Shown here piece after piece: positions 365 to 37,269 of a stretch of 37,749 bases of DNA. The notes under the pieces were generated by a model. The model was not told the origin of the DNA, searched no databases, and worked only from the letters and a program-made list of their open reading frames with translations. The position numbers and the translations under genes were made by a program. The first letter of the stretch is position 1, and every line of letters starts with the position of its first letter. The DNA is taken from positions 1-37,749 of IMG/VR virus record IMGVR_UViG_3300037484_000558; one strand, written 5' to 3'. This stretch comes from a virus. Its lineage: Duplodnaviria > Caudoviricetes.

Positions 365-1767
365 TGTAGTTCTCCATCGAACTCGAAGGATAGGTCAACG
401 ATTCCTCGGCGTGATCGAATTAGATCGGCGTCTGGAGTCGTAACAACGCCGTGCCACGTCCGCCCTTCCCAATCCGTCAATCCTACCTCAAGACCGAGTG
501 TATCGTTGAAGAAGTCTTGCACGGCTTGTGCTTGGGCTTCCGTAAGCCCTGTGAAAGTCAACGCAAGCTGCTTGCTCTTCGGCCACGTAGGGTCTGCAAA
601 TATCTGTAGCGTCCCGCCCCGCGACTCACGGTTGATTCGCGTGAAATTAAGACGCTCTCTATTCCCAAACTCCGGCACCCTGATATTAACCTCAAGGGTC
701 GGAGAAGTCGTCGGGTAGAATAACCGCACGAAGTTCTGAGGCGTCAGCGTCGGCATCGTAATGGCCGGTGGGGTCGGACCTGTTCCCTCCCCGACGTTTG
801 GAGAGTAGTTACAAGTATCGACGGCGTCTTCCCACACGATCGCTTGCGTGAACACCAGGCCATTGGTTACTGTTCGATCCCAGACCGTACCAGCGGCGGA
901 CGCCGCCTGCGTAAATACTATGTCGCTCTCGACTTGATTGATTCGGTCCTTTGCGACTACCTGCATAAAGACCAGCGTCTGCTGGGCCGTTCGGAACACC
1001 GGGAGTGTAGCTCGGTCTGTAAAGACTAAGTCCTGCGATACGGACTGATCGACCGCCCCGGCGAGAATCTTAACCTTGACCGCCAAGTCCGTGAAGACAA
1101 GATTACTGGAGGCGTCTCGTTCGAGACCGCCTTCAATAATCAAAGTCTTCAACGCTTGCTGTGTCAGCACCAAACCATTACTAGCGAGCAATGTCTGGAG
1201 CGACGAGATTCCTTGGTCCGTCAACAATAGCGTTTGGACGACGTGTTCAAGATACGGCGTTGGATTCGTGGTCGCCGCGTACTGGCTGAACACCAGCATC
1301 GACGACACTGATTCTACAAACAAAGACGAGAGGGCTTCCTGGGTAAAGACCAAACTGTTGGAAGCACTGTGTTGCTTTGTTTGGCCCGGCTCCGGCAAGT
1401 CCTGACTAAGAACAAGATCATTGTCAGTAGTGGGCTGCAGCGTGATTTCCGAAGCTGCGGTATCGTCAAAGATCGCGTTCTGATTGATCCCGTAGATTTG
1501 CTCGACAGCATTCGTATCCGAAAAAATCAAACTGCTGTCGGCCGTCTCCTCGATGGCCGGGGAGGCTTCCATCAGCACGTAAATCGCGTAACGATACAGG
1601 CGTACGTCCGGCGTCGCGGGATCGCCGGCTACGTCGGCATTCAAACGAGTAACACGTAACGTCGGGTCAGTTAAGCCGGCGACGTCGGCATTGACCCGAG
1701 TTACCCTCAATGTCGGGTCGGTCAAGCCGGCTACATCCGCATTTAGTCGTGTGACTCGTAGTGTCAT
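361..1767 (-). CDS. Tail/virion protein with N-terminal repeats and a distal-tail-like C-terminal domain (468 aa)
   Basis: Long ORF coupled to its neighbours, downstream of the tape measure. Has 17-aa N-terminal repeats and many LVF-x-[DQ] repeats. Confidence 0.7.
   Translation of the reverse strand: MTLRVTRLNADVAGLTDPTLRVTRVNADVAGLTDPTLRVTRLNADVAGDPATPDVRLYRYAIYVLMEASPAIEETADSSLIFSDTNAVEQIYGINQNAIFDDTAASEITLQPTTDNDLVLSQDLPEPGQTKQHSASNSLVFTQEALSSLFVESVSSMLVFSQYAATTNPTPYLEHVVQTLLLTDQGISSLQTLLASNGLVLTQQALKTLIIEGGLERDASSNLVFTDLAVKVKILAGAVDQSVSQDLVFTDRATLPVFRTAQQTLVFMQVVAKDRINQVESDIVFTQAASAAGTVWDRTVTNGLVFTQAIVWEDAVDTCNYSPNVGEGTGPTPPAITMPTLTPQNFVRLFYPTTSPTLEVNIRVPEFGNRERLNFTRINRESRGGTLQIFADPTWPKSKQLALTFTGLTEAQAQAVQDFFNDTLGLEVGLTDWEGRTWHGVVTTPDADLIRSRRGIVDLSFEFDGELQ
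1624..1764 (-). repeat. About three 51-bp coding repeats (TLRVTR[LV]NADVAGLTDP)
   Basis: Near-identical peptide repeats with synonymous DNA differences. Confidence 0.85.
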
Positions 1768-1768
1768 G

Positions 1769-2848
1769 TTAGCCTACCTCTACGCCTGTTTGCATCCCGT
1801 TGACTTCAGAGACAGCCCAAGCTGCTGCCGTGTCCGGATTCGTCTCGAAGACGTGCTTAGTTGTCTTGTACGATGTCGTCGAGATGCCTTGCGTCGTGCC
1901 ATTACCCTCGGTCGTTCCACTCTTGACCTTCGGAATTTGATTCATCGTCCCGGTATCAACCTTGGAGGTCATGTTGACCTGTACGGCTTTCACATCCGAG
2001 GCGATGAAAGTCAGTGCCGCCATGTTGACGAGAGTCTCATTGCCGACAGTGTTGCTCTCTATGTAGGTCGTATCATCATCCGGCGGATCGTCGTCCAACA
2101 AAGCATACGAATCAGTTCCAGTACTGAGTGTAAAATCTTCCGAATCACCGTCGGCATCCGGGAGGGTAGACTCAATCTTGATCGGCCCTAGGAACGCCGA
2201 ATCGCTGATGTACACGTCATCGTAATTCAACTGACTGTTCTGGTTGTCGGCATCACCGTCGATTCCATACAGTCGAAGATGCGTGCCGATCGTTCCCGTC
2301 TCAGACGTGTCAATGCTACTGACGTTCATCTTCTCGACACCATTCACTCGAATGATGACGGAACCACCTGTGCCCGTGGCGATCACAACCTTGTATTCGA
2401 TGTAGGACCAGTGTCCGGGCATACAAGCGTCAACGGCCACAGTTGCTGACGTTATCGGGCTGCTACCGAAGTTCGTGCTTTGCACCCGCAAAGTGGCGTT
2501 GTTGACAAGGTAGATCGCCGTATTCAGGACGCTGTTCACTTCGTTCCAGATACCGAACAGAAGTGACGAGGCAACCAGAGTCGTTCTAGGACGGACAGCG
2601 AATCCAATGTATACAGTCGAAAGATTCGAGCCGAAGGGCAACTGGACGTAGTGTTGGTCAGCACTACCGTCCGAACCTAGAGACAAGGCGAATCCATTCC
2701 CACCCCATCCCGTCCAGATCCGAGGACCAGTACCACCAGTCCACAGGTTGTTGTACTTCTTGTCGATAGCCGTCTGTACCGCCGATGATCCGCCGCTGCC
2801 GGTCGTGGTCCCAAGACCCTCGAAACCTTCAAGTAGAAGAATCGCCAT
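1769..2848 (-). CDS. Virion structural protein, beta-sandwich/lectin-like (359 aa)
   Basis: Tail-module position; full-length paralog of 2848..3942 (LLxEGFEGLGTTTG start; DDxY; PDAD; YALxD). Confidence 0.7.
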   Translation of the reverse strand: MAILLLEGFEGLGTTTGSGGSSAVQTAIDKKYNNLWTGGTGPRIWTGWGGNGFALSLGSDGSADQHYVQLPFGSNLSTVYIGFAVRPRTTLVASSLLFGIWNEVNSVLNTAIYLVNNATLRVQSTNFGSSPITSATVAVDACMPGHWSYIEYKVVIATGTGGSVIIRVNGVEKMNVSSIDTSETGTIGTHLRLYGIDGDADNQNSQLNYDDVYISDSAFLGPIKIESTLPDADGDSEDFTLSTGTDSYALLDDDPPDDDTTYIESNTVGNETLVNMAALTFIASDVKAVQVNMTSKVDTGTMNQIPKVKSGTTEGNGTTQGISTTSYKTTKHVFETNPDTAAAWAVSEVNGMQTGVEVG

Positions 2849-3942
2849 TAGGTTTGTACCTCCATCCCGAACTCGGCTGCATTGATTCCAGACTCAGTCC
2901 AGAACAAGCCGGTATCGGGGTCAGTTTCGAGAATTCGACGCACGGCAACAGGATCGTCGGCATCGGAGATACCAACCGAGGCACCGTTGCTTGTAGTTGC
3001 ACCAGACTCCACGACATTGCGAATGTTTCTTACCCCGGCGCTGTTCACCTTGACAAGAGCTTCTTGCATCACGGCCTTGAAGCTACCAGAGCCAACAGGT
3101 TGCATCGAGAACGCCTCACGGTTTGTCGCCGTTACGCCATCTAAGTAGTCGGCGAAATCTTCCTCCGCCTCATCCACCAGAGCGTAGTGATCGACGCCGA
3201 CACTGGGTGTAAAATCATTCGGGCTGGCGTCCGCGTCCGGATAGTATGCTCGAATCACAGTGTTGATACCCAGGAAGTCGTTGTTGATCGAACCATCTGA
3301 ATTCAACACGTACAGGTCATCAAGCAAGAACTGTGTTTCTGGCGTACCACTTCGTTGTGAACTAAATCGTATAAAGCCAACATTACCGTCGGAATCTTGA
3401 GTGTCAATGCCCGATGCAGATAGGATAGTCGAGCCATCCAGTTTCAAGTCGTATGATCCGGCACTTGGGTGTATCAGGACTTTCCATTCCAAGTGATACC
3501 ACGTATCAGTTGTCAACACAACTCCAGATGTTGCCAGTGTAACAACCGCGCCAAGCTTGATCCGAAACTTATTCTGATCGACGATATTCAATTGGAATTG
3601 CGAGTTCTCAAATGTCCCAAGAACTGACACACTGTGAAAGCTGATGAAAGTCCTATCTTCCGATTGCGTCGAACTGCTCGTCTTGAAACGCAAACCAACA
3701 ATCAGAGTCTTGCCGTATTGGTTCTCGGGGAACATATAGTTCCATTCACCAGTGGCAAAAGGGTCGCCCCAAGAATAGGCATAACCTATTGCATTGTACC
3801 CAGCTTCCAAGTGTCCAAAGTTGGCGCTCGGGTAGCTACCAAAGTAGCCACGTCTGCGGAAACGGGTATTGAATGCGGCGGCAGCACCGACGCCAGTCGT
3901 TGTTCCAAGGCCCTCGAAGCCTTCCATCAGCAATACTGACAT
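2848..3942 (-). CDS. Virion structural protein, paralog of 1769..2848 (364 aa)
   Basis: Start moved to ATG 3942 (MSVLLMEGFEG), which has GGAGG upstream and aligns with the paralog's N-terminus. Confidence 0.7.
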   Translation of the reverse strand: MSVLLMEGFEGLGTTTGVGAAAAFNTRFRRRGYFGSYPSANFGHLEAGYNAIGYAYSWGDPFATGEWNYMFPENQYGKTLIVGLRFKTSSSTQSEDRTFISFHSVSVLGTFENSQFQLNIVDQNKFRIKLGAVVTLATSGVVLTTDTWYHLEWKVLIHPSAGSYDLKLDGSTILSASGIDTQDSDGNVGFIRFSSQRSGTPETQFLLDDLYVLNSDGSINNDFLGINTVIRAYYPDADASPNDFTPSVGVDHYALVDEAEEDFADYLDGVTATNREAFSMQPVGSGSFKAVMQEALVKVNSAGVRNIRNVVESGATTSNGASVGISDADDPVAVRRILETDPDTGLFWTESGINAAEFGMEVQT

Positions 3943-3953
3943 AAGTGCCTCCG

Positions 3954-3990
3954 AAAGAAGCCGCACCGGCCAGCGAGACCGGTGCGGCTT
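3954..3990 (-). terminator. Intrinsic terminator-like hairpin
   Basis: 12-bp stem AAGCCGCACCGG/CCGGTGCGGCTT followed by CTTTC on the minus strand, just after the 4011..4727 stop. Confidence 0.7.
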
Positions 3991-4010
3991 GATTTTGAAA
4001 TCAGATCAGA

Positions 4011-4729: not shown

Positions 4730-7700
4730 TTACCTCCCTAAGGTGAATGTCTTTCTACGAAGCTCGCGGTTGAGTTGATTCATCACTTCGCGAGCAGTAG
4801 CACGAGGACTGGCGGATTCTGTCACGTTGATTTTAATATCACCAACGTTAGTTGTCGTGCCACCTTCCTGTCGAAACACTGGAGTCACTCCGGCGTTCAT
4901 CGCCTGAATCTGCGGAAAGAACTTCTGCGTGGCACCAACTGTATTCACAGACTCACCACGCGTCAGCATGGCCAACTGATTGTCCGTCCCAAGAGGGCCA
5001 CCCAAAGCGCGATAAATCGTTCTCGGATCAAGGATCACGCCACCGTCCTGGCGAAACGCGATGCCACCAAACATTCGTCCCTGAGCACCGGCACCACTAC
5101 CAGACTGCAAAGAGTTACGCTCTTTGAGCAGATCGATTTCCCTTTGGGTGTTCCGTTGGGCCTCAACCGAGCCAGAGTTGACTTGGCTGTAACCTTCCTT
5201 AGCCACTATGCCCAATCGAATGTGCTCTTCTTCGATCCCTTTCGTCGCATCCCCTAGGGCCTTGGTTTGTTCCTCAAGGGGCTTCAGAGTTTCCGCAGAT
5301 TCCCTCAAAATGTCACGTGCTTTTGAAGTCTGGCCCAAAGCTACCAACTTATTAACTAACTCATCAATCTGTTTTGCTAACTCTGGAAATCCAGACTGTC
5401 TTGCTCGAAGAGCCATTTGTTGGATTTCAAGAATTTTCCTTGCCGCCAGCTGCGGATCAAGTGCTTCCAAACTGAAGGCTCTCTGGGCTTCAGTTGTTAA
5501 GTTGACTAGTTCTTGAGTCAGATTTCTAGCGGCATCCTGCGTCTCGCGTGCTCCAGGTAGTTTGATAGCCTCTGGAGTCAAACTCCGGAGAATTGCTACA
5601 GCATCATTTAGTGCCGAAGAAACCCCAGTCGCTTCATTCGCAAATAGTCTTAGAGACAGACGCGACACTTTCTCGTTGATGTTTCCGAGTAGGCCATCAA
5701 TCTCGACGTACAAGTTCTCCTGGTCGACGAGATTGGTGTTAAGATCAAGCGTAGCCTTCTCAGCATCCGCAAGATTCTTTGGTCGCTGAGTTACCGCGTT
5801 CTGTACGTTCTCAAAACCCTTCTCACTTATCTTAATCTTGAAAATACTTTCAAGTGCAATCTTCTCGGCCTCTGGAATAGAGGCTGCTTGCGTCCTAAGG
5901 ATTTTCAAGATTGTTCCGAAATTGAGATCAAACGCATTCTCCAAATTGATCCGCACACCTGTCCGTGGATCACGGAATCGGTCCTGAACCTTTCTGATCA
6001 ACGGACCGAAGTCTGGGTCGTACTTCTCGAACAGTTGAATCTGACTTCCAAGTTGATCCAATATCTTTGTGATATTGGCGGCGTACTCCGTTGCTTTCTT
6101 CTTGGCGTCTTCCGGTTCCAACTCGGGATCAAACTTCAACTTATCCGAGATAAGTTCCATTTTCTCCAACGCTTCCACATTGGCCTTCAATTGGAACAGC
6201 AGGTTCTGGGCGCCTGGCAATTGTTTCTTCGCCAACTCGACCAGTTCGAGACGCTTCTGCTTCTCAGCTTCTGCGGTCGCAACATTCTGCTGCAGCAATG
6301 CCTGAACCTGGCGAACGGCTCGAAACTCCAAAGCTCTGTTGTTCGCACTGTCCGCGACACTCAAAGCCGCTTTCGCCGCGGACTCAGCCTCTTGTTGCAA
6401 TTCTGCGCCGGCTTCTTTGTTGCCAGCGGCGAACTGTTCTGAGGCTCTTGCCGCCAACTCCTGCGATCGTTGGACCTGCAACATGACCTGACGGCTAGCG
6501 TCCAGGTCTTTAATCTGACGCTCGAATTGGAATCCTTCCAAGCTGAGAGCAGCACTCTTGATATTATCATCAAGACTCTTCAACGAGTTGTCGGCGTCTA
6601 TTGTCGCATCATTCAGCTTACTGACGAAATCTTCGACAAGACTCAGGCGATCCTGAATCTGTTCACCGATGGAATCAGTGAACGCCGCTTGAAGATCGGC
6701 AGCAACCCTCGCGTCCTTCGTCCACCGTTGCTGCAAGTTAAGCAACAAGACCTGAGTCTGACTGAAGATCGCGTCTTCAGTCTTCTCCAGTTCAGCACGA
6801 CGAAGAGTCTCAGTCCGGATAGTCGATCTTAACTGGGAGTTGTTCCCTTCAATAACAGCATCCGCAGCCTTCCTTGCTGACGTCGCGAAGCTGTCGAATG
6901 CGGCAGAAGCACCGAGCACTAAGCCAGCCGCAAGTAATGCGGCTCCAAGTGGGGTAGCCGCAAATGCGAACATGGCGTCCGTGGCTGCTACACCGGCTGC
7001 GGTTAACGTCGCCAAAGAGACCGATGTTCCTAATGCTGCCGTACTGATTCCGGCGGCACTGATGATAAAAGCACCTGCGGCTGCACCGAATACTACACCG
7101 AAAGTCTTGACAGTAGCGGCACCACCACCGAAAGCTTCAAAGATAGCATTGATGCCTTTCAACGCTTCCTGGCCGAACCCAGCTACAAACAGATTCTTGA
7201 TATCGGCCAGTTCACGTTTGATTTTAGTAGCATCAGTCTCGAAAATCGTCGAGAACGCTTTCTCCAGATCAATCTCGCTTGCGTTCTTGATTTGGTCAAG
7301 TGTGTCGCCGAATGTCTCGGCTGCACTACCTGTCAAACCCAAGACGCCGCGGATAGCTCGTATTCGGTTGAACAACTTCCCGAGTTCGGTTCCGGTCCCG
7401 TCTGTCTGATCCGCAAGCTTCTGTAGAAAGCCCTGGAATCCGAACGCCTGGATACCGGCTTCAGCCGAGGCGATACCCATACGATCAAACAATTTGCGAA
7501 GATTTTCCGACGGACTGATCAGTTTCAACTGCGTGTTCGTGATGAGGGTGAAAGCCTCATTATATCGCAGACCAGTGATGGTAAGCTCAGCAATGGAAGC
7601 TAACAACTCATCCTGGGACACACCCAATTGATCCGAAAGAACCGCGACGCGCCCATACGTGTTCGCAAATTCTTCAGCACGGATTCGACCTAACTCGATT

Positions 7701-9228: not shown

Positions 9229-9911
9229 TTAGCCTCGTCTCTGGTTAGTTGCCTTTGCTAAAGCGTTAATTGGCCGTGCCTCAGCCTCAGCCTCGTCGTG
9301 CTCACGTATCTGGTTGTACGCGAGCATATCTGCTTGGATTTCTAGTGGGAGTTTATCCCAATCTTCCCAAGGTTTCAGGTCGAATCGCTCGCAGGCTCTC
9401 CAGATTGCGAACTTGCCAGTTCGTCCACTAGGGAGGATGATTCGTCTCTTGGAGCCTGCAGACCAGCTAAAAAACGTTTGCGAGCCTCCTCGACCGCTCG
9501 CTCACTGAGACTGTTCGCCACCAAAGCACCGTTCACGAGGCGATTGATTTCAATATCACTCAGGCCAGAATCCCGCAATTCCTTACGGAAATTGGACCAT
9601 GTCGTGTTATCGGAGATATCAACCGTCTCCCATTCGAGATCCGGTGTGCCGTCCATCAATCCCTTGACGACGATGTACGCCATCCGCTTCACGCCGTACG
9701 CTTCGCATTTCTTCACGTAGGCGGGATCGTTCGTGTTCTCGACGCGTTCGTTGTTCGGAAGAATCTTGGCCGGCGGTTTCGGGAGCGGACAGAGTTTCTC
9801 GAACTCATCAAAGTTGTCGATCGCTTTGATGAGGAACTCCAGGTCGCCATCCGGTCGCGGCAAAATCACGGGTTCAACATGGATTCCAGGGCGCTTGCCT
9901 TTGAGTTTCAT
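9229..9911 (-). CDS. gpGT-like -1 frameshift fusion (~227 aa)
   Basis: T TTT TTA at 9474-9468. The -1 frame reads SWSAGSKRRIILPSGRTGKFAIWRACERFDLKPWEDWDKLPLEIQADMLAY... to TAA at 9231-9229, 1 nt before the next ATG. Confidence 0.85.
9375..9911 (-). CDS. Tail assembly chaperone, gpG-like (178 aa)
   Basis: Between major tail protein and tape measure; GGAG RBS; contains a slippery site. Confidence 0.8.
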   Translation of the reverse strand: MKLKGKRPGIHVEPVILPRPDGDLEFLIKAIDNFDEFEKLCPLPKPPAKILPNNERVENTNDPAYVKKCEAYGVKRMAYIVVKGLMDGTPDLEWETVDISDNTTWSNFRKELRDSGLSDIEINRLVNGALVANSLSERAVEEARKRFLAGLQAPRDESSSLVDELASSQSGEPASDST

Positions 9912-9927
9912 ATCAGACTCCGGTGGT

Positions 9928-11140: not shown

Positions 11141-11767
11141 TCACGCAGGGATGAGTTCGTCATCAATCAAGTCCAAGAATACGAGATTATTCTCAACGTC
11201 TTCTGTCTTTAATGAAGAGACGCTCTCATCAATGAAGATGAGATTATTCTCAGTAGCTCGTTCGATTAGAACCTCACCATCCACTTGTTCAGAAAGATGC
11301 ATCTGGAACGATGCCTCAACCGTCGCTTCCTCTAACTGATACTGCGGATCAATTTGACCAAAATGATTGACCCGGACCGGCTCTCGGAAGGTACGATTCT
11401 TCAACTGCAAAACGCCGAGGAGTGAATTGTCATCGTCAGGCCCGTCCCCGTAACGGTAGATGCAATGGTTCTTTGCGAGCCACGTCGCGACTTCACCGCA
11501 ACTGCGGCGCATCTTATGGAAGTCGGTGTCATCCATGAAGGACCGAACCAGGAGATTGATTTCAATATCAAGAATGAAATAATTCCGGCTCGGTTGTTTC
11601 CTCATCGGGCCATCCATCCGGAACTCAAGCAGTTCCGTGTTGGCCGGCAACCCTCTATGCGTACCTTCGATGAACACGCCGAATGTACTTTCAAACCGAG
11701 ATTTGAAATTCCCCGACATTGTGGCGAAGATCCATCGGTCCCAATTTGGGTTCCCTAGGACGCTCAT
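11141..11767 (-). CDS. Putative tail terminator/connector protein (208 aa)
   Basis: Position immediately before the major tail gene; ATGA overlap with the upstream gene. Confidence 0.55.
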   Translation of the reverse strand: MSVLGNPNWDRWIFATMSGNFKSRFESTFGVFIEGTHRGLPANTELLEFRMDGPMRKQPSRNYFILDIEINLLVRSFMDDTDFHKMRRSCGEVATWLAKNHCIYRYGDGPDDDNSLLGVLQLKNRTFREPVRVNHFGQIDPQYQLEEATVEASFQMHLSEQVDGEVLIERATENNLIFIDESVSSLKTEDVENNLVFLDLIDDELIPA

Positions 11768-13983: not shown

Positions 13984-14036
13984 GACTGTGCCTCTCTTAG
14001 AAAATGATTTCAGAATCAACAACGGGAACCCGGGAT

Positions 14037-14882: not shown

Positions 14883-14893
14883 TGATTTTGTCC

Positions 14894-15352
14894 TCAGGAT
14901 ACCCTACGTAGTTTGATTCCACGAACGTCGCCAAGCAGGGGTTTGAGGTATTTCCAAGCTAACGAGCTAGGAATCCCTGCGGCAAAGTGTTCGGGCGCAG
15001 AGTCGCGAGCGTAGGTTGTTCTCGCGGCACTGTAGCCTTCCGAAGACACGGAGAGGCTTTCTTGTTCCAGGTCTGGTTCTGCTCCGTCTAATAAAGCATA
15101 AGCGACTTCAAACGTAGCGTCTTTCACACGTTGCGGAACCTCAGTATCTTCGTAAATCGTATTGATCCTTGGCCACTCCAGAGCCTGAGTGGAATCTGTC
15201 TTGGCCCCTCGAAAATTCAACTGGTCGATCCTGATTGAAGCCTCTCGAAGGGCACGGTTGCGTTGATCCTCGTCAGCCTCAACCCAAGCTGGGATGTGGA
15301 GTTTATTCCCGAAATACGCCTCAGCCTCGATCGTGGTGCCGTACTGTGCCAT
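14894..15352 (-). CDS. Head-tail connector-like protein (phage DnaT-like family, 152 aa)
   Basis: EAEAYF...W...F.G.KTD..QALEWPR...VP..VK.A..E.A pattern. Confidence 0.65.
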   Translation of the reverse strand: MAQYGTTIEAEAYFGNKLHIPAWVEADEDQRNRALREASIRIDQLNFRGAKTDSTQALEWPRINTIYEDTEVPQRVKDATFEVAYALLDGAEPDLEQESLSVSSEGYSAARTTYARDSAPEHFAAGIPSSLAWKYLKPLLGDVRGIKLRRVS

Positions 15353-18851: not shown

Positions 18852-19196
18852 TTATGTCCGTAGTAACTCGGACCAGTTGTTGTTCTCAAAGTAGAGTATA
18901 ATCAACTTGAACGGTTTGAGCTTGAACTTTGATTCTAGAATCAAATTACCGCCAGAGTCCTGTAGCTCAACACCGTCGCCCCGGAGTAGCAGAAGATCAC
19001 CTTCTTGTCCTCCGAAAATATTGTACGTCTTCGCATCGTTGCCGTTTACGACGACGATTGTTCTCGTAACTGCAAAGTTTCCAGCTACATTCAGAATCTC
19101 AGGCGGGCCGAGATTCAGATGTAAGATTTCGTTTCTACGTTCCCCGATATCTTCTATTTGCCCGGCCACCATCGCGAGAGAGCGTAGACCACTCAC
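18852..19196 (-). CDS. Hypothetical virion protein (114 aa)
   Basis: GTGA overlap with the upstream gene; beta-rich with a WSE C-terminal motif. Confidence 0.6.
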   Translation of the reverse strand: MSGLRSLAMVAGQIEDIGERRNEILHLNLGPPEILNVAGNFAVTRTIVVVNGNDAKTYNIFGGQEGDLLLLRGDGVELQDSGGNLILESKFKLKPFKLIILYFENNNWSELLRT

Positions 19197-23528: not shown

Positions 23529-23801
23529 TTACCTCGGTCGTAGATCGGCCGGCAACGGAGGCTTCGGGTTCACTGGCTCGGGCCACATGAACTTCGATAA
23601 CGTCCCAGTCTCTTCGTCGACCACCGCACCGATGCCGATGCGTTTGTCGTGCGGTTCCACCGAAACATACTCGGCGTACTTAGGGTCGAGATGGAGAGCA
23701 ATCTTGCCTAACGATCCGTTGTGGCCGTCCTTGATTTTATACTCACCGGCGTAGATGTCAACGACACCTTCCATCGGTACGAATTCAAAGATACTTTTCA
23801 T
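23529..23801 (-). CDS. Hypothetical protein (90 aa)
   Basis: GAGG RBS before ATG 23801; fills the operon gap. Confidence 0.65.
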   Translation of the reverse strand: MKSIFEFVPMEGVVDIYAGEYKIKDGHNGSLGKIALHLDPKYAEYVSVEPHDKRIGIGAVVDEETGTLSKFMWPEPVNPKPPLPADLRPR

Positions 23802-24433: not shown

Positions 24434-25412
24434 AGCTTGATATTGCGAAGCAATCCTCCCAGTCGTTGAACATGAGATCCAGGTACTCGGCGTCGACCCA
24501 GAACGAGCCAACAGGCTGATCGTATCGGGTCGGGCCACTATTCCAGTCGAGCCATGAGTTTATAATCAAACCGCCTGGCCGACTGCCGGTGTCGTCGAAT
24601 CCGGCAAGCAACATGCAGTGGTACCACCGTTTGCGGTAGTTCCACACCCGCCAACGTCGCCGGACTGTTGTGCTGAGATAAGGCATGGCGAAGCCGTCCT
24701 TATCCCGCTCGTCATGAAACGCGTACGTCGAGCACACGATGATCGGCTGGCCGACGTAAAGGGCATCGAATGCCGAACGCCAGTTCAGGATCTTTGTGTA
24801 TTCCTTGATGGGTCGTTCCTTGGCGATTGGCTCCAACCAGTCTGGAACACCCGAATCTCGGTACTTGCGTGACCGTGCCGGTGAGTAACCTGTCAGGTCG
24901 ATTTTATTCTCACCGACCTGGTAAGGTATGCGGTGAATTACGCCGTAGTCTTTCAGGTATTGTACGGCCCACTCACCATGACTCCCGGCCCCGCCGCGTA
25001 AGTCCCCGTCTCCGATTTCTACGCGGCTACCGGCGTAGATCATTTCGACACTGGCCTTAGCGATCCAAGGCTCCGGCTCGAATCGCATGAAACGGTCGCA
25101 GGCCATCAAGATGTCGACTGCTCCGCCAGCACCCTGGCCGACGCAATCGCCTTCGCCCCGCTCTCCGTTTTGCGGTCCCTGGTTATGAGTCTGCCAGGGA
25201 CCGGCCTGCATCTCGAAGTATTTCCAAAGCAGGGCTTTCTTACCCACACTTATTGAATTGAACTGTTGGTAAGCCTTACCAAAGTGTTTACGTCTACTTG
25301 GTTGGTTTGGTCGGATCGCTCCAAAGTCCTCATCGTCGGCAATTGCTTTCGCCGGAGCTACGAACAAAATCGGCGATAAGGCGGCAGCCTTTAGGAGCGT
25401 TCGACGTTTCAT
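24396..25412 (-). CDS. Papain-like (C1 family) cysteine peptidase with a Tat signal peptide (338 aa)
   Basis: MKRRTLLK plus h-region and AKA; Q...GDC, HCM and NSW catalytic motifs. Confidence 0.8.
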   Translation of the reverse strand: MKRRTLLKAAALSPILFVAPAKAIADDEDFGAIRPNQPSRRKHFGKAYQQFNSISVGKKALLWKYFEMQAGPWQTHNQGPQNGERGEGDCVGQGAGGAVDILMACDRFMRFEPEPWIAKASVEMIYAGSRVEIGDGDLRGGAGSHGEWAVQYLKDYGVIHRIPYQVGENKIDLTGYSPARSRKYRDSGVPDWLEPIAKERPIKEYTKILNWRSAFDALYVGQPIIVCSTYAFHDERDKDGFAMPYLSTTVRRRWRVWNYRKRWYHCMLLAGFDDTGSRPGGLIINSWLDWNSGPTRYDQPVGSFWVDAEYLDLMFNDWEDCFAISSYVGNPEKLLPRV

Positions 25413-26158
25413 TGTAATGACCTTTCGACAATCGTGGCCAGCTTAGGCCATTCCCGTTTGAAATCTTCCCTGGTCTTCAAATCCAACGTATCGACATAAG
25501 CAGCTAGGACCTCCAGGTACGGCGTCCATTTCGGATCATCTGCGGTCGCCCGTTTAAGCCCGGCAACCGTCTCAGCAAGCATCTGATCGGCTGGCACGGC
25601 TGATTCGGCGAGTGCTCGAAAGCACTGAGCAAGTTTGGGACCCGCTTCCTTATCGGCTGGGGCGACTTCTTTGAGTTTAACCTCAACTTGACTCAGATCA
25701 ACTGGGGCCGGTTTGGGCGGATCGGGCTTGGGAGCCGGAGGAACCGGAGGAACTGGAGCCGGAGGATTGGGAGCCGGAGGAACCGGAGGAGCCGGAGGAG
25801 CCGGAGGATTAGGAGCCGGAGGATTAGGAGCCGGAGGATTAGGAGCCGGAGGCTTCGGCGGTTCCGGTTTGGAATCTTTGGACACAACCAACGTGTGCGT
25901 CAGGATGACAGGCTTCTCGTCGACGATGCCGGCCAGAACGAACGTATAAGTACCGGTCTGCCGCGCCGAGAAGAAGGCTTTTGGGCCTATTGCCTCGAAG
26001 TCCGAAGTCTCCTGGATGCACTTCCAAGCCACTTCATCCGAGCCACTCGACTCGAACCGAACAAGTTCTCCGACCACCGCAGTCTGCGGGGCCTGAAGCG
26101 TCATTTCTGCGTGAACTGTTCCTGCGATAAGCAGGAGAATCATTGAGAGTGTTTTCAT
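25409..26158 (-). CDS. Secreted protein with a proline-rich linker (249 aa)
   Basis: Sec signal MKTLSMILLLIAGTVHA, beta domain, (PPAPN)n linker, helical C-terminal domain. Confidence 0.75.
   Translation of the reverse strand: MKTLSMILLLIAGTVHAEMTLQAPQTAVVGELVRFESSGSDEVAWKCIQETSDFEAIGPKAFFSARQTGTYTFVLAGIVDEKPVILTHTLVVSKDSKPEPPKPPAPNPPAPNPPAPNPPAPPAPPVPPAPNPPAPVPPVPPAPKPDPPKPAPVDLSQVEVKLKEVAPADKEAGPKLAQCFRALAESAVPADQMLAETVAGLKRATADDPKWTPYLEVLAAYVDTLDLKTREDFKREWPKLATIVERSLQ
25730..25852 (-). repeat. 9/15-bp coding repeats (GGAGCCGGA on +) encoding the Pro-rich linker
   Basis: Visible tandem repeats. Confidence 0.85.
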
Positions 26159-27120
26159 AATGCTCGTCCTGCTCCGGAATTGTAGACGTATGCGGCCTGG
26201 TCATCGGTCACGTACCGATTGTAGAGCAATACTTCGTCAATTGCTCCGAACCAGCCACCAGTGTAACTGCTCGCATTCCTGAACAACTCAAACATATTGG
26301 TCGTCGGTACGGCCATTGCCTGGCCACTTGCCAATGTCTTGAGATCCTTGGTTCCTAGATTCACCTGGAAACCATGCTCGTCTCCCGCCGTGCGACGCCA
26401 AAATCTCACGAAGAACCATAGATCATCATCCAGTGTAGCGTCCGTCAAGTAGTGAAAAACGAGCGTTGTCTTATCGCTGAAGTAGTGCAGGAAGTTCCAT
26501 GCAATCGGTGAGTTCAAAATCTCAAGACGCCAGCCACGTTCGGCTGTTGTGGTACTTGCACCACCAGCTTTGATGATTGGAAACGCTGTACCAAGAGTGG
26601 TACGTGGTTTGCACCAGAACATCACCGTGTAGTCGCCAGTGGCGAAATTGAAAGCATTGCTTCCCGTCCACTGTAAGGCCCGACCGTCATTCTCAGTGTA
26701 GGCCGCGGTTCCAACTTTACCAGTCGCACTAACGATCGAGCCGCCATTTTCCGACAAGTCTCGATTGTTGGCCGAAGAATCTTGACGCGTGCCGGATGAC
26801 TCTTCCAACTTCCAGTAAGCGATATAGTCGAAGACGTTCGGGATGTACAACTCGTCAATGTCCTGTGCAAAGGACAACCCACTTGTTCCTACTGTGAGTG
26901 TAGTATCAACGATCCGTTGTCCAATTGGATTAGAATCGTTGAAGATCAAATCATTCTCACCAATTGTGAGTGTAGTATCAACGATTCGCTGGCCAGTTGG
27001 GTTGTCATCGTTGAAGAACAAGGTACTTGCACGTTCCTCAAGAAACGTCGCTCCGGTCGAAGCATCCGGCAGCGTCATCATTTTCCGGAACAGCATGGAG
27101 CGGCGTGTCGTGCGTTTCAT
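26155..27120 (-). CDS. LamG/concanavalin-A-like domain protein (321 aa)
   Basis: AYWKLEE, YTVMFW and GAIDEVLLYNR motifs; 24-aa (72-bp) duplication near the N-terminus. Confidence 0.75.
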   Translation of the reverse strand: MKRTTRRSMLFRKMMTLPDASTGATFLEERASTLFFNDDNPTGQRIVDTTLTIGENDLIFNDSNPIGQRIVDTTLTVGTSGLSFAQDIDELYIPNVFDYIAYWKLEESSGTRQDSSANNRDLSENGGSIVSATGKVGTAAYTENDGRALQWTGSNAFNFATGDYTVMFWCKPRTTLGTAFPIIKAGGASTTTAERGWRLEILNSPIAWNFLHYFSDKTTLVFHYLTDATLDDDLWFFVRFWRRTAGDEHGFQVNLGTKDLKTLASGQAMAVPTTNMFELFRNASSYTGGWFGAIDEVLLYNRYVTDDQAAYVYNSGAGRAL

Positions 27121-27917: not shown

Positions 27918-28468
27918 TTGTTCTCCGATACGAGGACTAGAAAATCATTGGCAATTGCTTCGAGAAGCGTCTGAATGTCCTCGTCCGTGAGTGACGTGAG
28001 TTCATTGATCTTAGCAGCAATGATCTGCATGAAGCTGGCCGCCAGATTCTTGACTTTCTGCTTGTCAAGCATGTCTCCAAGCGTTCCTTCGAGTCGATTA
28101 CACGACGTTACTGCTTTCTCGACCTTCATGATTAGGTCGGAGAGTGGCCCTGAAATCAGAAGCAGATCGTTCGTGTCTTCACATTTTTGAACGCGCGTCT
28201 CAATCAGGAGCCTGAGAAGAGCAACTTCGTCACGCAAACCCTTGAGTTTGTCATGATCGGCAAGCTGATCTACTCGTGTCTGGAACTTGGCCAGGTTGTA
28301 CATGCGTAAAGATTCACGCTCTTTCTTGGCGAGGATCTTGTTGGCTCCGTGAAGAGCGCAACGATGGATCTCAGGTTCTGCAAGGTTGCCGCATCGCTCC
28401 CCGTTTGTGAGTATAAAATCACAACGGAGAACCTCATCGGTTCCTTTTGTCCAGCGTTTGAGTTCCAT
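27914..28468 (-). CDS. Putative terminase small subunit (184 aa)
   Basis: First gene of the late operon; C...C...CALHG Zn-type motif, then helical LRDEVALLR. Start moved to ATG 28468 after GAGGG. Confidence 0.55.
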   Translation of the reverse strand: MELKRWTKGTDEVLRCDFILTNGERCGNLAEPEIHRCALHGANKILAKKERESLRMYNLAKFQTRVDQLADHDKLKGLRDEVALLRLLIETRVQKCEDTNDLLLISGPLSDLIMKVEKAVTSCNRLEGTLGDMLDKQKVKNLAASFMQIIAAKINELTSLTDEDIQTLLEAIANDFLVLVSENK

Positions 28469-28843
28469 AATGCCCTCGATGGCACTTTCTTGCCAAGATT
28501 TTAGAATCAGTCCGCTTCCCACTTCACATATTATATCGGGGATTAGCAAGAAAGTTGCGCAGGAAAATTTTTGACAACAAAGTGCCACCGCTTGGGATCG
28601 AGAATTCCCGGATCTAAGGACAAAATAACCCTCCCTCCCACTGATATTAAACTCAAGAGGCACGTTTTATGGTATTTGATACATGATACTTGATACTTGA
28701 ATACCCAGAAATGACCCAAGATACAAGATCCAAGATGCTTGATTCTAATATTTTTCACGGGGTAGGTCACAGTCGATAGGGAACCACGTGCCGGATTCTC
28801 CGATCCCGCAGATTGTATCGACGAAATAACCCTGCACGGTAGT

Positions 28844-30445: not shown

Positions 30446-30594
30446 CCAATACAACGCGTACCCCGAATGTTGGGTCTAAATGGCGGTTGCGTTGTACGTC
30501 ACCCCGCCCTACACTCTACCCCATTCGGGGTATCACAAGTCTCCGTAGCGTGCGTTGAGTTCAAAATCAATTCGCGTTTTTCGGAGATTTTCTC

Positions 30595-31668
30595 ATGGCG
30601 AAGCAGCCAAGTGTTACGAAACTGATTGATTTCTCGATGCTCTACCGCGCTGACAACGTGCGGGATGAAACGTGTACCCGGATTCCGGACATGGTTTCTT
30701 CCCTCAAGGTCAACGGCTTCAAAGTGAATCACCCACTGGTGGTTTCGCTCAAGGCCGACAACCGCGCCCTTGTCCTGTGCGGAAACCGGCGGGAAGAGGC
30801 GCTGGAGCACCTTCAGGCCAATGACTTGGAGGCGTTCAAGGCGGCCTTGCCGGGCGGCAAGGTGCCGTGTATCGTGTACACGGGCCTGACGGAGGAAGAG
30901 GAAATCCTGTTGCGAATTGACCACGGGCCACAAGAGGACCGCGTCCCGTTGTCCGAATGGGGCAAGTTCCTGGCCATCAAGCAGCTTCTCCGCGCCTACC
31001 CTGGCGAAAGCCAGGCGAAAATCGCCGAGAAGCTCGGCATCTTCAACACGAAGGGAAAGGGCATCGGCGAACCGAACCGGAGCTACGTGCAAGTTCGCGT
31101 GAACTTGGCAAGGCTGCCGGAGTACATCCAGGCTGAGTTTAAGAAGCTCAGCGTGTCCGGCAATGACGCCACCCCGGTTCGCTGGAGCAACGTGAAAGAG
31201 CTGTACACGGCATTCAACGCCGAGTTCGGCCCCTTCCCCGATGGGGACGGTCCCCAGTTGAAGACGGCATGGGAGAAAATCATCAATCCCGCGCCGGAAG
31301 TGCCGGTGGACGATACCACCCCGAAACCCACGTCGCTGTCACCCGAAGCCGCTCGCGCTCGCGCTCAGAACGCGGCGAGCAAGGCAATCAAGCGGGTCTA
31401 CTTGGCCGCAACCGGGCAGGGTGGCGATATCGTCCAGATCGACAGCATGTTGCTGGAAATGGAAACCAGCCACGAGTTGCTGGGCATGATTCGCGCCTAC
31501 CTCGGCGCGGACGAGTACGCCAGTCTCGTGAACCGCTCGCGCGAACACCGGGTTGCGGAAGAGACCGCGCAAGCGGAACGCAACCGGGCCGAAGCCGAAG
31601 CGAAAGCCGCTGCCGAAGCCGCTCCCATCGTGGCCGAAGCCGCTGTCGAAGTCGTGGTCAACAGCTAG
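30595..31668 (+). CDS. ParB/Srx N-terminal domain protein (357 aa)
   Basis: GGAG RBS; NG...PLVV...LCGNRREEAL (ParB GxRR box); SQAKIAEKLG HTH-like segment. Confidence 0.75.
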   Translation: MAKQPSVTKLIDFSMLYRADNVRDETCTRIPDMVSSLKVNGFKVNHPLVVSLKADNRALVLCGNRREEALEHLQANDLEAFKAALPGGKVPCIVYTGLTEEEEILLRIDHGPQEDRVPLSEWGKFLAIKQLLRAYPGESQAKIAEKLGIFNTKGKGIGEPNRSYVQVRVNLARLPEYIQAEFKKLSVSGNDATPVRWSNVKELYTAFNAEFGPFPDGDGPQLKTAWEKIINPAPEVPVDDTTPKPTSLSPEAARARAQNAASKAIKRVYLAATGQGGDIVQIDSMLLEMETSHELLGMIRAYLGADEYASLVNRSREHRVAEETAQAERNRAEAEAKAAAEAAPIVAEAAVEVVVNS

Positions 31669-32043: not shown

Positions 32044-32070
32044 ATGATTTCAAAATCAGGAAAGGCGATC

Positions 32071-32261: not shown

Positions 32262-32930
32262 GCGCTCGCGCCAACCAACACTACGTGTCCGCGCTGATTT
32301 TAACATCAATGAAGGGACCACAACAAGGCGATCCTCGCTTCGGGTTATATAGATGTATGTATCTATGAATACTAATGATGGCGCTTTCTTGCCAAGACGT
32401 AAGACTCAACGCCTCCGCGCTGCTGTCGAGTGCCCTAGAATGACCGGCAAGGCCCCTCACGCCTCCAAGGTAGCACGCAAGGCCCATCTTTGGGCAACTA
32501 TGTCAAGGCGACTCTGGACGCTTCCTGCGCAATCCTACGCGGTCCGCGCCTAAGTCAAGGCACCATAACGACTTGCGGAAATACCGGATTTCTCAATTTG
32601 CCCTTCTTCTATATGTAATTTTGGTTCTAAATTCTCCTATACACCTGATGCCTGTTCTGTAATTCCTGTAACCGATCCAAGGTCGAGAGTCCTAAGTCAA
32701 GGCCCTGAAAGGACTTACGGCGAGTTGCGCCCGCGCCGAAAGTTACAGGAAATAATAGCAAATGTTCACTAAAATAAAACTTTCCCCATTAGAGGGGTTC
32801 GAGAATCTTAATGATGACGCGCAACTCTGCCATAATGACAGTCTTGCCAAGATTCTGCACTCCTAGATTTAAGCGCTTATTTCGACTTAAGCGCTTGTTT
32901 TAAGCGCCTCTGATACTAAAATCATGAAAC

Positions 32931-32988: not shown

Positions 32989-33540
32989 CTACAGTAGGCG
33001 TTTATCGAGCGCCTCCAACGCCCAGTACAACGCCTTACGGGCATCGAACAGGGCTTCATGTTCCTTGCCTTCCAGTTCCGAGGGCGTGGCGAAGCTATCG
33101 AGTCCAGGAATCCCGTCCCAAGTAGCGTACTGAGCACCCGGATCGAGCGCTCGATGCGTGAACAGATGTTTGGGGAATCCATTGAGTTTCCACAGGAACT
33201 GCCGGTCAAACCCTTGGAAGTTCTTGCCACAGGGATGCACTCGTCCCTCACTCCCAATATACCCGACTAACCATTCCTTGAACTGCGGTCCCAACTCATG
33301 AATCCTGATCCAGCCGAGCGTAGCCGTCTTGGGCAACCTCGCCATCTCAGCAATCAGCTTTGAGTTTAACATCAAAGCAAACGGCGCCCCTTCAAGGCGA
33401 TCCCAGCGAATCTTGGCATGGAAGAAGGGATAGTCCGACAGCTTCGGCTTCTTCTCCAACGCCAATACGGCGGCAAACTCCAACACTTGATCCTTCTCGC
33501 TGTCCAGGCCGGTCGTTTCGATATCAATTGAGCAATACAT
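32989..33540 (-). CDS. DEDDh 3'-5' exonuclease (183 aa)
   Basis: IDIETTG, GKN...FD and HEALFD motifs. Confidence 0.88.
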   Translation of the reverse strand: MYCSIDIETTGLDSEKDQVLEFAAVLALEKKPKLSDYPFFHAKIRWDRLEGAPFALMLNSKLIAEMARLPKTATLGWIRIHELGPQFKEWLVGYIGSEGRVHPCGKNFQGFDRQFLWKLNGFPKHLFTHRALDPGAQYATWDGIPGLDSFATPSELEGKEHEALFDARKALYWALEALDKRLL

Positions 33541-33689: not shown

Positions 33690-34448
33690 TCAAGCCAGAC
33701 CGTCTCCCCATCGCACAACTGGAACTCCCATGTCCAGCCCGGCGCGGTTAGCGTAGTTATCCGAGATTTCGCAGCCATCGCAATCCCTTTCCATCCGAGA
33801 CGCCACTCGCATGGTGGTTCCGGTTCCCAAGAAACAATCCAGTATGGTCCCACCCCTCGATACACTCGATATGATTACTCTTTCCATGAGCGCCTCCGGA
33901 TGTTGAGTCGGGTGCCAAGCTCTCCGTTCCTTGGCGTTCCCTACCACTCGGGGCACATCTTGGATGATAGGCATGTCCCAAACGTCATCAGGCACCCTTC
34001 CCTCCGCACAAGCCCGAGTGTCGCCGATCCGTTGCCTCTCCGATTCAACTCGTGGCAACTCAACCGGCTTCCACACCGGACTATTCACCCTTAGTAAATA
34101 CCTGAATCCCGATCCGAAATCAGTCGCACGATGCTGGCCGAAAGTGTATCGCCAAATAAAAGTTTTCCCACTGTGGGCCTGGAATCGGCCCTTCATCATG
34201 CTCCGCAGCCGGCCCTTGATTTCAATATCATGACTCCAGTAGTAACTGAGCCAAAACACATTGCACTTGCACAACGCGTTCCACATCAGCACTTCGAGCC
34301 AACCGTAGTAGGTCTCCGCTGACAGTTTGTCGTCGTAGTTGTCGTACTTGAGTCCGAGGTTGTCCGGCGGGTCCATCCAGATCATGTCGTACTTGTCACA
34401 CCGTCTCAAGTATTCCAGGCAGTCGCCGTTGATGATCTTCATAGCCAC
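33690..34448 (-). CDS. N6-A/N4-C DNA methyltransferase, beta class (252 aa)
   Basis: INGDC, DPP(D), HPTQHP and DCFLGTGTT motifs in motif IV-before-I order. Confidence 0.88.
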   Translation of the reverse strand: MAMKIINGDCLEYLRRCDKYDMIWMDPPDNLGLKYDNYDDKLSAETYYGWLEVLMWNALCKCNVFWLSYYWSHDIEIKGRLRSMMKGRFQAHSGKTFIWRYTFGQHRATDFGSGFRYLLRVNSPVWKPVELPRVESERQRIGDTRACAEGRVPDDVWDMPIIQDVPRVVGNAKERRAWHPTQHPEALMERVIISSVSRGGTILDCFLGTGTTMRVASRMERDCDGCEISDNYANRAGLDMGVPVVRWGDGLA

Positions 34449-34822
34449 GCGACTCCGAGTGTGAAGGACAAGTTGAACTTATCACCACGCCGACACTCGA
34501 TTTGGTGTTCCTGCTTCTTCAGTAGCATGTCCTGATACGTGAAGAAACTCGTTTTGACCACGACCCGACGCCGGATGTGCAGAGTCGGGAATCGGAGAGT
34601 CATGGTTCCTTCGACCTTGTCGATGATGCACTGTAGCGGAGCATCCAGTTCGTAGAGTCCGAGATTAGTCTCAACGAACCCGCGAATCGGGGCGTTCATT
34701 GAGTTCAACATCTTGACGTAGACCATGACTCGTTGGATCTTGCTGTAGTCCTGCAAGACCGGCGGTCTCACAGGTCTCTTCCGCCGGAATGGTGATATTA
34801 GTATCAAAGCAGGTGACTCCAA
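34439..34822 (-). CDS. Hypothetical protein (127 aa)
   Basis: Overlap-coupled ORF in the operon. Confidence 0.6.
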   Translation of the reverse strand: MESPALILISPFRRKRPVRPPVLQDYSKIQRVMVYVKMLNSMNAPIRGFVETNLGLYELDAPLQCIIDKVEGTMTLRFPTLHIRRRVVVKTSFFTYQDMLLKKQEHQIECRRGDKFNLSFTLGVAWL

Positions 34823-35130: not shown

Positions 35131-35354
35131 AAGGATAGTTCTCGTACACGGACGGGATTCAGGTGAAACGTAATCATCGGAATCATGTCGCCGTTGTGGA
35201 GTGTGTCTTCGACTTCATCGAAGTATGCATCAAGTCGAAGCGACAAGATTCCAGACTGTTGTGCCGTCTCGTCCAGCTTCAGGAACAATTCGGCAATGCC
35301 TTCAGGCGTCAGGTTTGATGCCTTGATACGGTCGATGATTGATTTCGGTATCAT
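35127..35354 (-). CDS. Hypothetical protein (75 aa)
   Basis: ATGA-coupled ORF. Confidence 0.65.
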   Translation of the reverse strand: MIPKSIIDRIKASNLTPEGIAELFLKLDETAQQSGILSLRLDAYFDEVEDTLHNGDMIPMITFHLNPVRVRELSL

Positions 35355-36230: not shown

Positions 36231-36652
36231 TAACCGATCCTATAGTTGGGTTTCTTGTAGGTGTTCTCGTAGCAAATGGTCATGGGCCAGAATTCCTCGC
36301 CGCGTCGCAAGTAGACCGGCTTGTCGGGGAAGCTAAATGCCAACTCCCCGTCCCGGTAAATCTCGACCTTTGTGATTTTAGTATCACGCCGCACCCTCAT
36401 GGAACGGAACTGCACGTAAATATAGCTGAGCGACCAGCTTTTGTGCTCCAAATGAGTATTCTCGAACACGCCCATCGACGTGTAGACCCAGGCAACCACG
36501 CCGTCCTTGAGTTTCCCGCGGGGTCGCTTGTATCCGTAGAACGGAGAGTCATTGTGAAAGAGCCAGTAGACTACCCTGAATAGCAGGCACACACCTGCCC
36601 CAACCAGTGCTGCAACGAAGAAGTCTCGGATCATGTCTTGTAAACTCCCCAT
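36230..36652 (-). CDS. Hypothetical protein with an N-terminal TM helix (140 aa)
   Basis: FFVAALVGAGVCLLFRVVYWLF; coupled ORF. Confidence 0.6.
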   Translation of the reverse strand: MGSLQDMIRDFFVAALVGAGVCLLFRVVYWLFHNDSPFYGYKRPRGKLKDGVVAWVYTSMGVFENTHLEHKSWSLSYIYVQFRSMRVRRDTKITKVEIYRDGELAFSFPDKPVYLRRGEEFWPMTICYENTYKKPNYRIG

Positions 36653-36825: not shown

Positions 36826-37090
36826 AGCTTCCTCTCGGGGCGTTGTGGAGAATAAACGCATTGGAGACAATGACACTCTGGTATCGAGCAACCAGATACA
36901 CGAAGTTGCCAAGGATCAGATCCTCGCAGCAGTATTCAGCAGTCCAGGTTGTCGGCTCCTCCCTTGAGACTCCCCGACGTGGGTCGCTGATTTGGAAATC
37001 ACGAGGCTTGCGGACAGTGACCCATCCCCAGCCCTCGTCACACTCCACGATATCGCCGTGGCACGGCCCGCCTAGTAACAGACGCTTCAT
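36803..37090 (-). CDS. Hypothetical protein (95 aa)
   Basis: LLGGPCHG N-terminal motif; ATGA-coupled. Confidence 0.65.
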   Translation of the reverse strand: MKRLLLGGPCHGDIVECDEGWGWVTVRKPRDFQISDPRRGVSREEPTTWTAEYCCEDLILGNFVYLVARYQSVIVSNAFILHNAPRGSYDPRRPY

Positions 37091-37245
37091 TTATCAAGCT
37101 CCACAGTTTTGATATCCAGGCGATGCCGTCGCAGGTTCTGGATGGTACAAGTATCTCCGTTCACGTCGACCACCTGTGCGGGCGACCCTTCGTACAGATA
37201 CCAGCAACCAACCTGCACGTCTTCTCCGGTAGCGGTCTTGGCCAT
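37087..37245 (-). CDS. Small hypothetical protein (52 aa), not in the ORF track
   Basis: GGAG RBS; MAKTATGEDVQVGCWYLYEG...; ATGA overlap with the next gene. Confidence 0.65.
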   Translation of the reverse strand: MAKTATGEDVQVGCWYLYEGSPAQVVDVNGDTCTIQNLRRHRLDIKTVELDK

Positions 37246-37269
37246 GCTCGGCTCCTGAGTTTAGAATCA

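Follow-up and report, generated by a model that had tools for sequence, protein, structure and literature searches.

The window and its palindromes

The stretch of DNA analysed here, called the window, is virus record IMGVR_UViG_3300037484_000558 (Duplodnaviria; Caudoviricetes), positions 1 to 37,749, rated 39% complete by CheckV. It carries genes for tail, tape measure, P22-type capsid, scaffold, portal and terminase proteins, a non-coding repeat block, a ParB-like gene (ParB-A), an exonuclease gene and, at 33690-34448, an N6/N4 methyltransferase gene; DNA contigs matching 28000-37749 agree with its sequence. Scattered throughout are copies of the 14-bp palindrome TGAK-N6-MTCA (K, T or G; M, A or C), the subject of this report. 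The original prediction, made from the sequence alone, listed 33 copies at about one per 1.1 kb. All 33 positions match the motif, but 12 further sites had been overlooked (starting at 2883, 7576, 11152, 11239, 13119, 14883, 17757, 18102, 19697, 20725, 22509 and 22794), and the true count is 45, with a mean spacing of 831 bp. Relatives are cited by G-numbered labels for records and L-numbered labels for loci. The ParB-A gene comes first below, followed by the sites, which have no strand; (-) marks minus-strand genes and D-I-E-I a site encoding that peptide.

30595..31668, plus strand, ParB-A gene: ParB CTPase fold (GNRR), helix-turn-helix (HTH), helical C-terminal part; candidate binder
681..694, within gene 361-1767(-)
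2883..2896, within gene 2848-3966(-)
3990..4003, intergenic
4828..4841, tape measure gene
6559..6572, tape measure gene
7576..7589, tape measure gene
9545..9558, within gene 9375-9911(-); D-I-E-I
9902..9915, covers start codon of 9375-9911(-)
11152..11165, end of gene 11141-11767(-)
11239..11252, within gene 11141-11767(-)
11557..11570, within gene 11141-11767(-); D-I-E-I
13119..13132, major capsid gene; position shared with G008 and G009
14005..14018, upstream of capsid ribosome-binding site
14883..14896, junction of adaptor and scaffold genes
15715..15728, virion protein gene 15352-16563(-)
16745..16758, within gene 16560-17066(-); D-I-E-I
17553..17566, within gene 17068-18837(-)
17757..17770, within gene 17068-18837(-)
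18102..18115, within gene 17068-18837(-)
18930..18943, perfect palindrome, within gene 18852-19196(-)
19697..19710, within gene 19671-20141(-)
19931..19944, within gene 19671-20141(-)
20725..20738, portal gene
21343..21356, portal gene
22509..22522, terminase large subunit gene
22794..22807, terminase large subunit gene; identical in G008 and G009
23732..23745, within gene 23529-23828(-)
24555..24568, within gene 24396-25412(-)
25672..25685, within gene 25409-26158(-)
26895..26908, within gene 26155-27120(-)
26967..26980, within gene 26155-27120(-)
28408..28421, within conserved gene heading the terminase operon
28642..28655, at or upstream of the start of the conserved gene heading the terminase operon
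30556..30569, 25 bases upstream of the ParB-A start codon
31717..31730, intergenic, downstream of ParB-A
32045..32058, intergenic
32295..32308, intergenic
32911..32924, intergenic
33361..33374, exonuclease gene
34217..34230, N6/N4 methyltransferase gene; D-I-E-I
34793..34806, gene junction
35340..35353, covers start codon of 35127-35354(-)
36373..36386, within gene 36230-36652(-)
36988..37001, within gene 36803-37090(-)
37256..37269, intergenic, directly upstream of 37087-37245(-)

Several details of the original prediction hold: four sites encode D-I-E-I (9545, 11557, 16745 and 34217), two overlie an ATG (9902 and 35340), one lies upstream of the capsid ribosome site (14005), and the site centres are AT-rich (76% AT in a genome of 53% GC).

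A selected array

The 45 palindromes are a selected, genome-wide array. One hundred dinucleotide shuffles of the window held 2.75 +/- 1.73 copies (maximum 10). When spacer lengths from 0 to 12 were compared, enrichment was confined to the 6-base spacer (45 copies, against 0-7 for the others), and in an unbiased scan of 3- and 4-base arms TGAK-N6-MTCA ranked as the strongest dispersed spaced palindrome of the window. Placement is more even than random, with a coefficient of variation of the gaps of 0.62 versus 0.97 for random placement (p=0.0002) and a largest gap of 2202 bp. The site consensus is TGAKWTYRAWMTCA, with constrained spacer bases; the half-site can be written TGA-T/G-W-T-Y, each copy presumably read by one HTH of a dimer.

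Constraint on the spacer bears on one alternative, that the motif is a bipartite target (TGA-N8-TCA) of the phage methyltransferase, kept for marking or packaging. The window does encode an N6/N4 methyltransferase, but the spacer sequence of such a target would be free and here it is not, and the methyltransferase family occurs in only five of 17 site-bearing records but in all four site-less ones. We consider this reading highly improbable.

A codon or peptide artefact is another. The frame that yields D/E-x-x-I/L holds 29 of the 37 gene placements, as a selected peptide might produce. Across 49 gene calls, however, 1000 synonymous-codon shuffles, each preserving every protein, left 4.3 +/- 1.9 sites wholly within genes (maximum 11) against the 36 observed, and the motif is therefore not a peptide artefact. 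At least seven sites are moreover intergenic, and only the 6-base spacer is enriched. We give this reading next to no credence, and both it and the methyltransferase reading were rejected on the evidence listed. The original prediction had proposed this shuffle, naming similar counts as evidence against itself; the counts are far apart. Its statement that the in-gene sites lie in different frames is right in that more than one is occupied, but only two of the three are used (29 and 8 placements), the third giving a stop.

The array across the phage family

Relatives from public metagenomes are phages of 65-130 kb with family A DNA polymerase, primase-helicase, SNF2 helicase, ligase and sigma factor. 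The best terminase identity to a cultured phage is 24%. Close relatives of ParB-A were found neither in viral contigs, by direct search, nor in cultured phages, and the two further ParB-type proteins of the family, ParB-B and ParB-C, gave only generic ParB matches in cultured phages (26-41% identity); from these searches we know of no cultured member. Shared structural proteins of the window and G009 are mostly 30-77% identical.

Sites of the TGAK type number 78 in the complete G010 (85 kb), 88 in G009, 79 in G014, 42 in G011, 37 in G002 and 33 in G008. The 59 ParB-A loci (63 less four duplicates, and leaving out the weak N-terminal-only matches L015 and L016, which show no site excess) hold 225 sites versus 27.4 expected, and 23 of the 28 loci of at least 5 kb are individually significant at p<0.01. 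A de novo palindrome search of 61 ParB-B loci (64 less three duplicates; log p cut-off -7.5) was confident in 31, gave a weak motif or none in 13 of the same clade, and gave none in 17 of a separate clade; for two loci 'none' was a manual decision, namely L137, with a gapped CG pattern at log p -7.7, and L346. In most non-integrating members the density of the dispersed palindrome is 0.3-1.5 per kb.

Spelling differs by lineage, as would be expected if the reader is phage-encoded: TGATTCCGGAATCA in G014, TGAGTT-N2-AACTCA in L145, GATT before AATC with N3 (G028), N4 (G030) or N5 (G047), GAGTTA-N-TAACTC in G024 (71 sites), TTGAT-N5/6-ATCAA in G006, TGTTA-N4-TAACA in G033, CAATA-N4-TATTG in L231 and CTCTA-W-TAGAG in L270 (about one per 0.7 kb). 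The last is the cleanest spelling, recurring about every 0.7 kb with little sequence variation in L270 and L274. Some single genomes have two enriched spacers, N5 and N6 in G006 (L148) and N4 and N5 in G022 and G030, which suggests a flexible dimer or two readers.

Individual positions turn over quickly. In-gene positions of the window are kept at 6 of 20 sites in G008 and 6 of 19 in G009, its two closest relatives, and at 1 of 16 in G010; lost sites are mostly 2-7 changes away from the motif. What persists is site density, not place. Even spacing is seen over 15 genomes jointly (Fisher p=1.4e-5; 5.7e-4 with the window excluded).

Relatives and hosts without the array

In a terminase tree (FastTree, 54 rows, rooted with six distant terminases) the family resolves into a pair of sister clades. 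The ten members found in host contigs all belong to the first (support 0.99), together with G032, G038, G005 and both provirus records. The second (support 0.97) comprises the window and every site-bearing record, along with five free records that have no detected motif and three with a weak one. In a midpoint-rooted polymerase tree (FastTree) the site-less clade falls within the others, and because the two rootings disagree we claim no direction of site loss or gain.

The ten host-contig members came from a terminase search of genome contigs. Their contigs measure 137 kb to 4.2 Mb; nine carry a Planctomycetota label (Pirellulales, Thermoguttaceae and others) and the tenth that of an uncultured archaeon. 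Their integrated loci hold 9 sites versus 9.3 expected. The apparent motif in the site-less L215/L346 proved to be a collagen-repeat artefact. That of G043 is a separate asymmetric low-copy element, not the palindrome: this site-less-clade provirus record (G043:C1:2278-84016) has six or seven copies of CTTACTGAATCAGCGA, an operator- or promoter-like family. Integrase or recombinase matches among 18 records were limited to G032 and G037, both in the site-less clade, and those of G037 lie at the record end and may belong to a neighbour. At the edge of the same provirus record (L178:927-3896) a 989-aa open frame matches Cas9d/IscB profiles below cut-offs. The 14 site-bearing-clade records tested gave no match to PF00589 or PF07508, though the window itself is a 39% fragment.

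The remaining terminase matches in genome contigs are small contigs of unrelated bins, so the host of the window's clade can only be surmised. This leaves some room for a host nucleoid protein or regulator, such as an FNR/CRP-like or host ParB/Noc-like factor, recruited by the phage: the records of the site-bearing clade sit in just such bins, the half-site resembles the FNR-type box, TTGAT, and the spelling in G006 is TTGAT-N5/6-ATCAA. But the host genome scan suggested in the original prediction revealed no host-wide array, the strict motif reaching at most 18 copies per genome in 301 Planctomycetota genomes (none in 160, one or more in 141) while the window has 10 in 37.7 kb, and half-site and spacer change repeatedly between related phages. 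We regard a host factor as unlikely.

In a second alternative, a further phage repressor, so far unrecognised, would use the sites as operators or stoperators to silence the genome in a dormant state. Non-coding DNA is 1.3-7 times denser in sites than coding DNA in all eight genomes compared, and several sites touch start codons or ribosome sites, both of which would suit operators. Against this, 48-88% of sites lie in genes, and the 14 tested records of the site-bearing clade show no integrase. No other gene family is present in all site-bearing and no site-less genomes, the best being Rho_N and NYN proteins (each 12 of 15). Stoperators, to which the original prediction had compared the array, are asymmetric and oriented, whereas the window sites are symmetric (PMC9283540). 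The stoperator reading was rejected on these grounds, and an unrecognised repressor is in our estimate distinctly unlikely.

Three candidate readers

ParB-A has 113 homologs. Its model (predicted local distance difference test 93) has Noc, KorB and ParB as best Foldseek matches (E 3e-6), over the CTPase fold and HTH, and a structure comparison (VIA) gave Z 11.2 for PadC and 9.9 for KorB; the protein has no Pfam match. The GxxRR box (G63 N64 R65 R66) is invariant in 112 of 112 sequences. The HTH, formed in the model by helices 140-147 and 162-172, aligns to that of ParB-B at probability 98, and its R162 and Q166, which likewise do not vary in any of the 112 sequences, correspond to R137 and Q141 of ParB-B, so that both proteins could read the same half-site in the window's lineage. 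ParB-A begins at the first strand, with fewer than 10 residues before it in 79 of 112; the ParB-C model begins likewise and matches Noc, its top Foldseek match, and ParB.

ParB-B and ParB-C both pass Pfam ParB_N and HTH_ParB. Of the 25 assembled records, 19 cover the replication module and every one of these has both proteins; the other six, including the window, are fragments without it. In G007, G014 and G010 the family A DNA polymerase gene follows that of ParB-B immediately or nearly so, and ParB-C adjoins the primase-helicase. Additional short stand-alone genes for a ParB N-terminal domain occur at L353:848-1309, L354:1396-1857 and L342:13832-14086. ParA (PF13614) was over cut-off in none of 18 records, nine of them at least 90% complete, while the control matched 14 of 14; the ParABS-type segregation that the original prediction had entertained fails for want of this partner.

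ParB-B has canonical boxes (AGxRR, ENLxR) and a GKSR helix, in which R137 aligns with the position occupied by Arg in Spo0J and Gln in Noc, the R173Q specificity switch of ParB and Noc (PMC7383237). This arginine is found in 17 of 25 phages with GAT-type sites, in none of six with other half-sites and in at most one of 17 in the site-less clade. Across the split between the clades, identity of the two reading helices of ParB-B drops from 0.52 to 0.29, whereas that of its CTPase domain is 0.44 vs 0.42; ParB-C declines evenly (0.50 to 0.38 and 0.45 to 0.31). In five of seven records there are sites no more than about 90 bases from where the ParB-C open frame starts, which, with the site 25 bases before ParB-A in the window, fits autoregulation.

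The position of ParB-B beside the polymerase, and of ParB-C beside the primase-helicase, might instead point to a self-loading processivity or replication clamp of the family A DNA polymerase, with ParB-B as the clamp and the kilobase-spaced sites as reloading points; no beta-clamp match was seen among 105 proteins scanned. Yet the site-less clade retains ParB-B beside the polymerase with the CTPase domain unchanged, and the literature search gave no precedent. We hold this to be very unlikely.

A proposed function

We think it probable that the array serves for the binding and loading of ParB-type clamps that these phages encode themselves, without a partner protein, and that would coat the free chromosome. 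The reader is probably a phage ParB paralog, ParB-B first, with ParB-A alongside in the window's lineage: ParB-B would be the likeliest family-wide reader, and ParB-A likely reads the sites too in that lineage. Each HTH of a ParB-type dimer would read one half-site, and binding would lead, by analogy with ParB, Noc and KorB, to CTP-dependent clamp closure and spreading. Clamps would load about every 0.8 kb, slide, and cover the whole free (non-integrated) phage genome. More tentatively, the purpose may be to mark or organise replicating phage DNA as self, by compaction or shielding, which fits because density is selected, sites lie in genes and the integrating kin have none. Local repression could operate at the minority of sites beside gene starts, including those of the parB genes themselves, and fits because of that minority. 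The dimeric protein marking the whole phage chromosome in the original prediction is supported by the family-wide co-occurrence of sites and ParB-type proteins. Its candidate, the ParB-like protein at 30595, does have a predicted ParB/Noc/KorB fold, but is one of three paralogs.

A bolder version, which we think rather unlikely, is sequence-programmed chromatin. Two or three ParA-less CTP clamps encoded among the replication genes would load at a site that the phage has written anew into its genes once per kilobase, sheathe the free genome, couple it to the phage polymerase and shield it as self; the integrating sister clade, not needing the sheath, would on this account be without sites and reading residues.

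A number of observations weigh against the clamp explanation. The contrast between genomes with and without sites is one split of the terminase tree, a branch along which lifestyle, GC content and perhaps the host differ as well; because the split is single, we count it once and without direction. In 13 of the 44 loci of the non-integrating clade the motif is weak or missing, yet ParB-B is retained, and, taken singly, only 5 of 15 genomes show significantly even spacing. The fragment that forms the window includes neither ParB-B nor ParB-C, whose presence in this phage is surmised from G009. ParB-A was not found, with a broadened profile and junction-spanning frames, in the circular, site-bearing G007, G030 and G047, nor in G028; the 369-aa protein that occupies the syntenic position in G007 is no match to it, and ParB-A as sole reader was rejected on the evidence of the three circular genomes. 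An altered helix is seen in the ParB-A of G025, G004 and G024, the last a genome with 71 sites. Among GAT-type phages, 8 of 25 are without the ParB-B R137. Columns with the R137 pattern are no commoner in ParB-B (5/107) than in the polymerase (22/371), and conserved columns lost in the site-less clade number 32/132 in ParB-C, 13/107 in ParB-B and 7/371 in the polymerase.

Other features of the window

At 28970-29572 lies a non-coding block of modular tandem repeats with 15-, 21-, 25- and 62-bp units, and a single 500-bp bin there contains 21 of the 68 CTAG found in the window. Relatives carry unrelated short tandem arrays at the corresponding place, close to ParB-A or to the front of the terminase operon, where assemblies frequently break; the block is a candidate genome end, packaging site or origin. 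A link between its CTAG-rich part (29190-29570) and the palindrome was rejected, as the site-less G032 has a tandem array in a like place. Three near-repeats of one unit lie in non-coding DNA at 29640-29950, upstream of plus-strand genes. Two of them include a strong sigma-70-like promoter (TTGACA-16-TATACT at 29848 and TTGACA-16-TATGCT at 29765), and the region may serve as early promoters or encode small RNAs.

Comparison with known systems

Partition by ParABS occurs in phage-plasmids such as N15. Like ParABS systems, including that of phage-plasmid P1, the family combines a ParB CTPase fold, an HTH and a palindromic site (PMC12704722). It differs in having no ParA in 18 records, three paralogs and unclustered sites (largest gap 2.2 kb in the window; 78 sites in the complete G010). 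The ParA-activating N-terminal segment of ParABS-type ParB is missing from the ParB-A and ParB-C models, which start at the first strand.

Cluster A stoperators resemble the array in that more than twenty sites run through the phage genome, but they are asymmetric 13-mers oriented with transcription, at promoters or in short intergenic gaps, bound by a monomeric repressor of temperate phages (PMC9283540).

ParB, Noc and KorB are dimers that bind a palindrome, close on CTP and slide (PMC11790492, PMC8429893). Noc of Bacillus subtilis is a ParA-independent ParB paralog that nucleates on palindromes scattered about the chromosome (Noc-binding sites, NBS) and then spreads (PMC8429893). Scattered palindromes, the lack of ParA and the top Foldseek rank of Noc for ParB-A and ParB-C are points in common; Noc, however, carries an amphipathic membrane helix at its N-terminus and a Gln at position 173, whereas ParB-A has no N-terminal extension and Arg there. 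KorB of plasmid RK2 is a ParB-family CTPase clamp that loads at OB sites away from its targets and slides up to 1.5 kb (PMC11790492). The array shares with it palindromes and a ParB-family clamp fold, KorB being among the best fold matches of ParB-A. RK2 is a plasmid whose OB is 16 bp and whose strong repression needs KorA (PMC11790492), whereas we describe a tailed phage with its own polymerase and most sites in genes; no KorA was identified, though no search was aimed at it.

The closest phage parallel is found in Cluster O mycobacteriophages such as Corndog, with 34 copies of a 17-bp dyad repeat of unknown function and binder; gp90 was listed as one of three possible DNA binders and judged unlikely to act in genome stability, and no binder was named (PMC4351075). 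In our analysis Corndog gp90 (L366:2425-3933) has a ParB N-terminal fold followed by an HTH. One dyad repeat lies about 130 bases downstream of the gp90 gene, and five lie within the surrounding 6.5 kb. Both systems have more than 30 symmetric sites genome-wide with an AT-rich centre, no integrase or parAB (in the present family, among the records tested), and a ParB-HTH gene, and one third of Cluster O sites are in genes (PMC4351075). Cluster O arms, however, are an invariant 7 bp, at about one per 2 kb and mostly at fixed positions (PMC4351075), whereas those of the window are short, degenerate, one per 0.8 kb and subject to fast turnover; Cluster O has one ParB-like gene rather than three, and phage, host and sequence are unrelated.

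In a survey of the ParB-CTPase fold, HTH fusions were reported to be nearly confined to plasmids and chromosomes (PMC12704722). Our literature search, which covered neither subscription papers nor supplements, returned no account of this family's array, nor of a ParB bound at dispersed sites in any phage that lacks ParA and does not integrate; family members might be listed in the datasets of PMC12704722.

Dense symmetric repeats in non-integrating phages have been a puzzle since Cluster O was described (PMC4351075), and the present family, with several spellings, three candidate readers and a sister clade without sites, is a natural experiment. If the clamp explanation is true, ParB clamps serve phages not for segregation but as a chromatin over the whole genome, at the cost of codon constraints in capsid, portal and terminase genes, and the family would be a source of new orthogonal ParB/site pairs with which to label DNA. 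The idea extends to the cultured Corndog, whose gp90 has a ParB fold and HTH. By analogy, the array appears to work like Noc/NBS and KorB/OB but falls outside ParABS, Noc and the stoperators; what is new is its very high density, its short, degenerate and fast-moving site, the three paralogs and the contrast between clades with and without sites.

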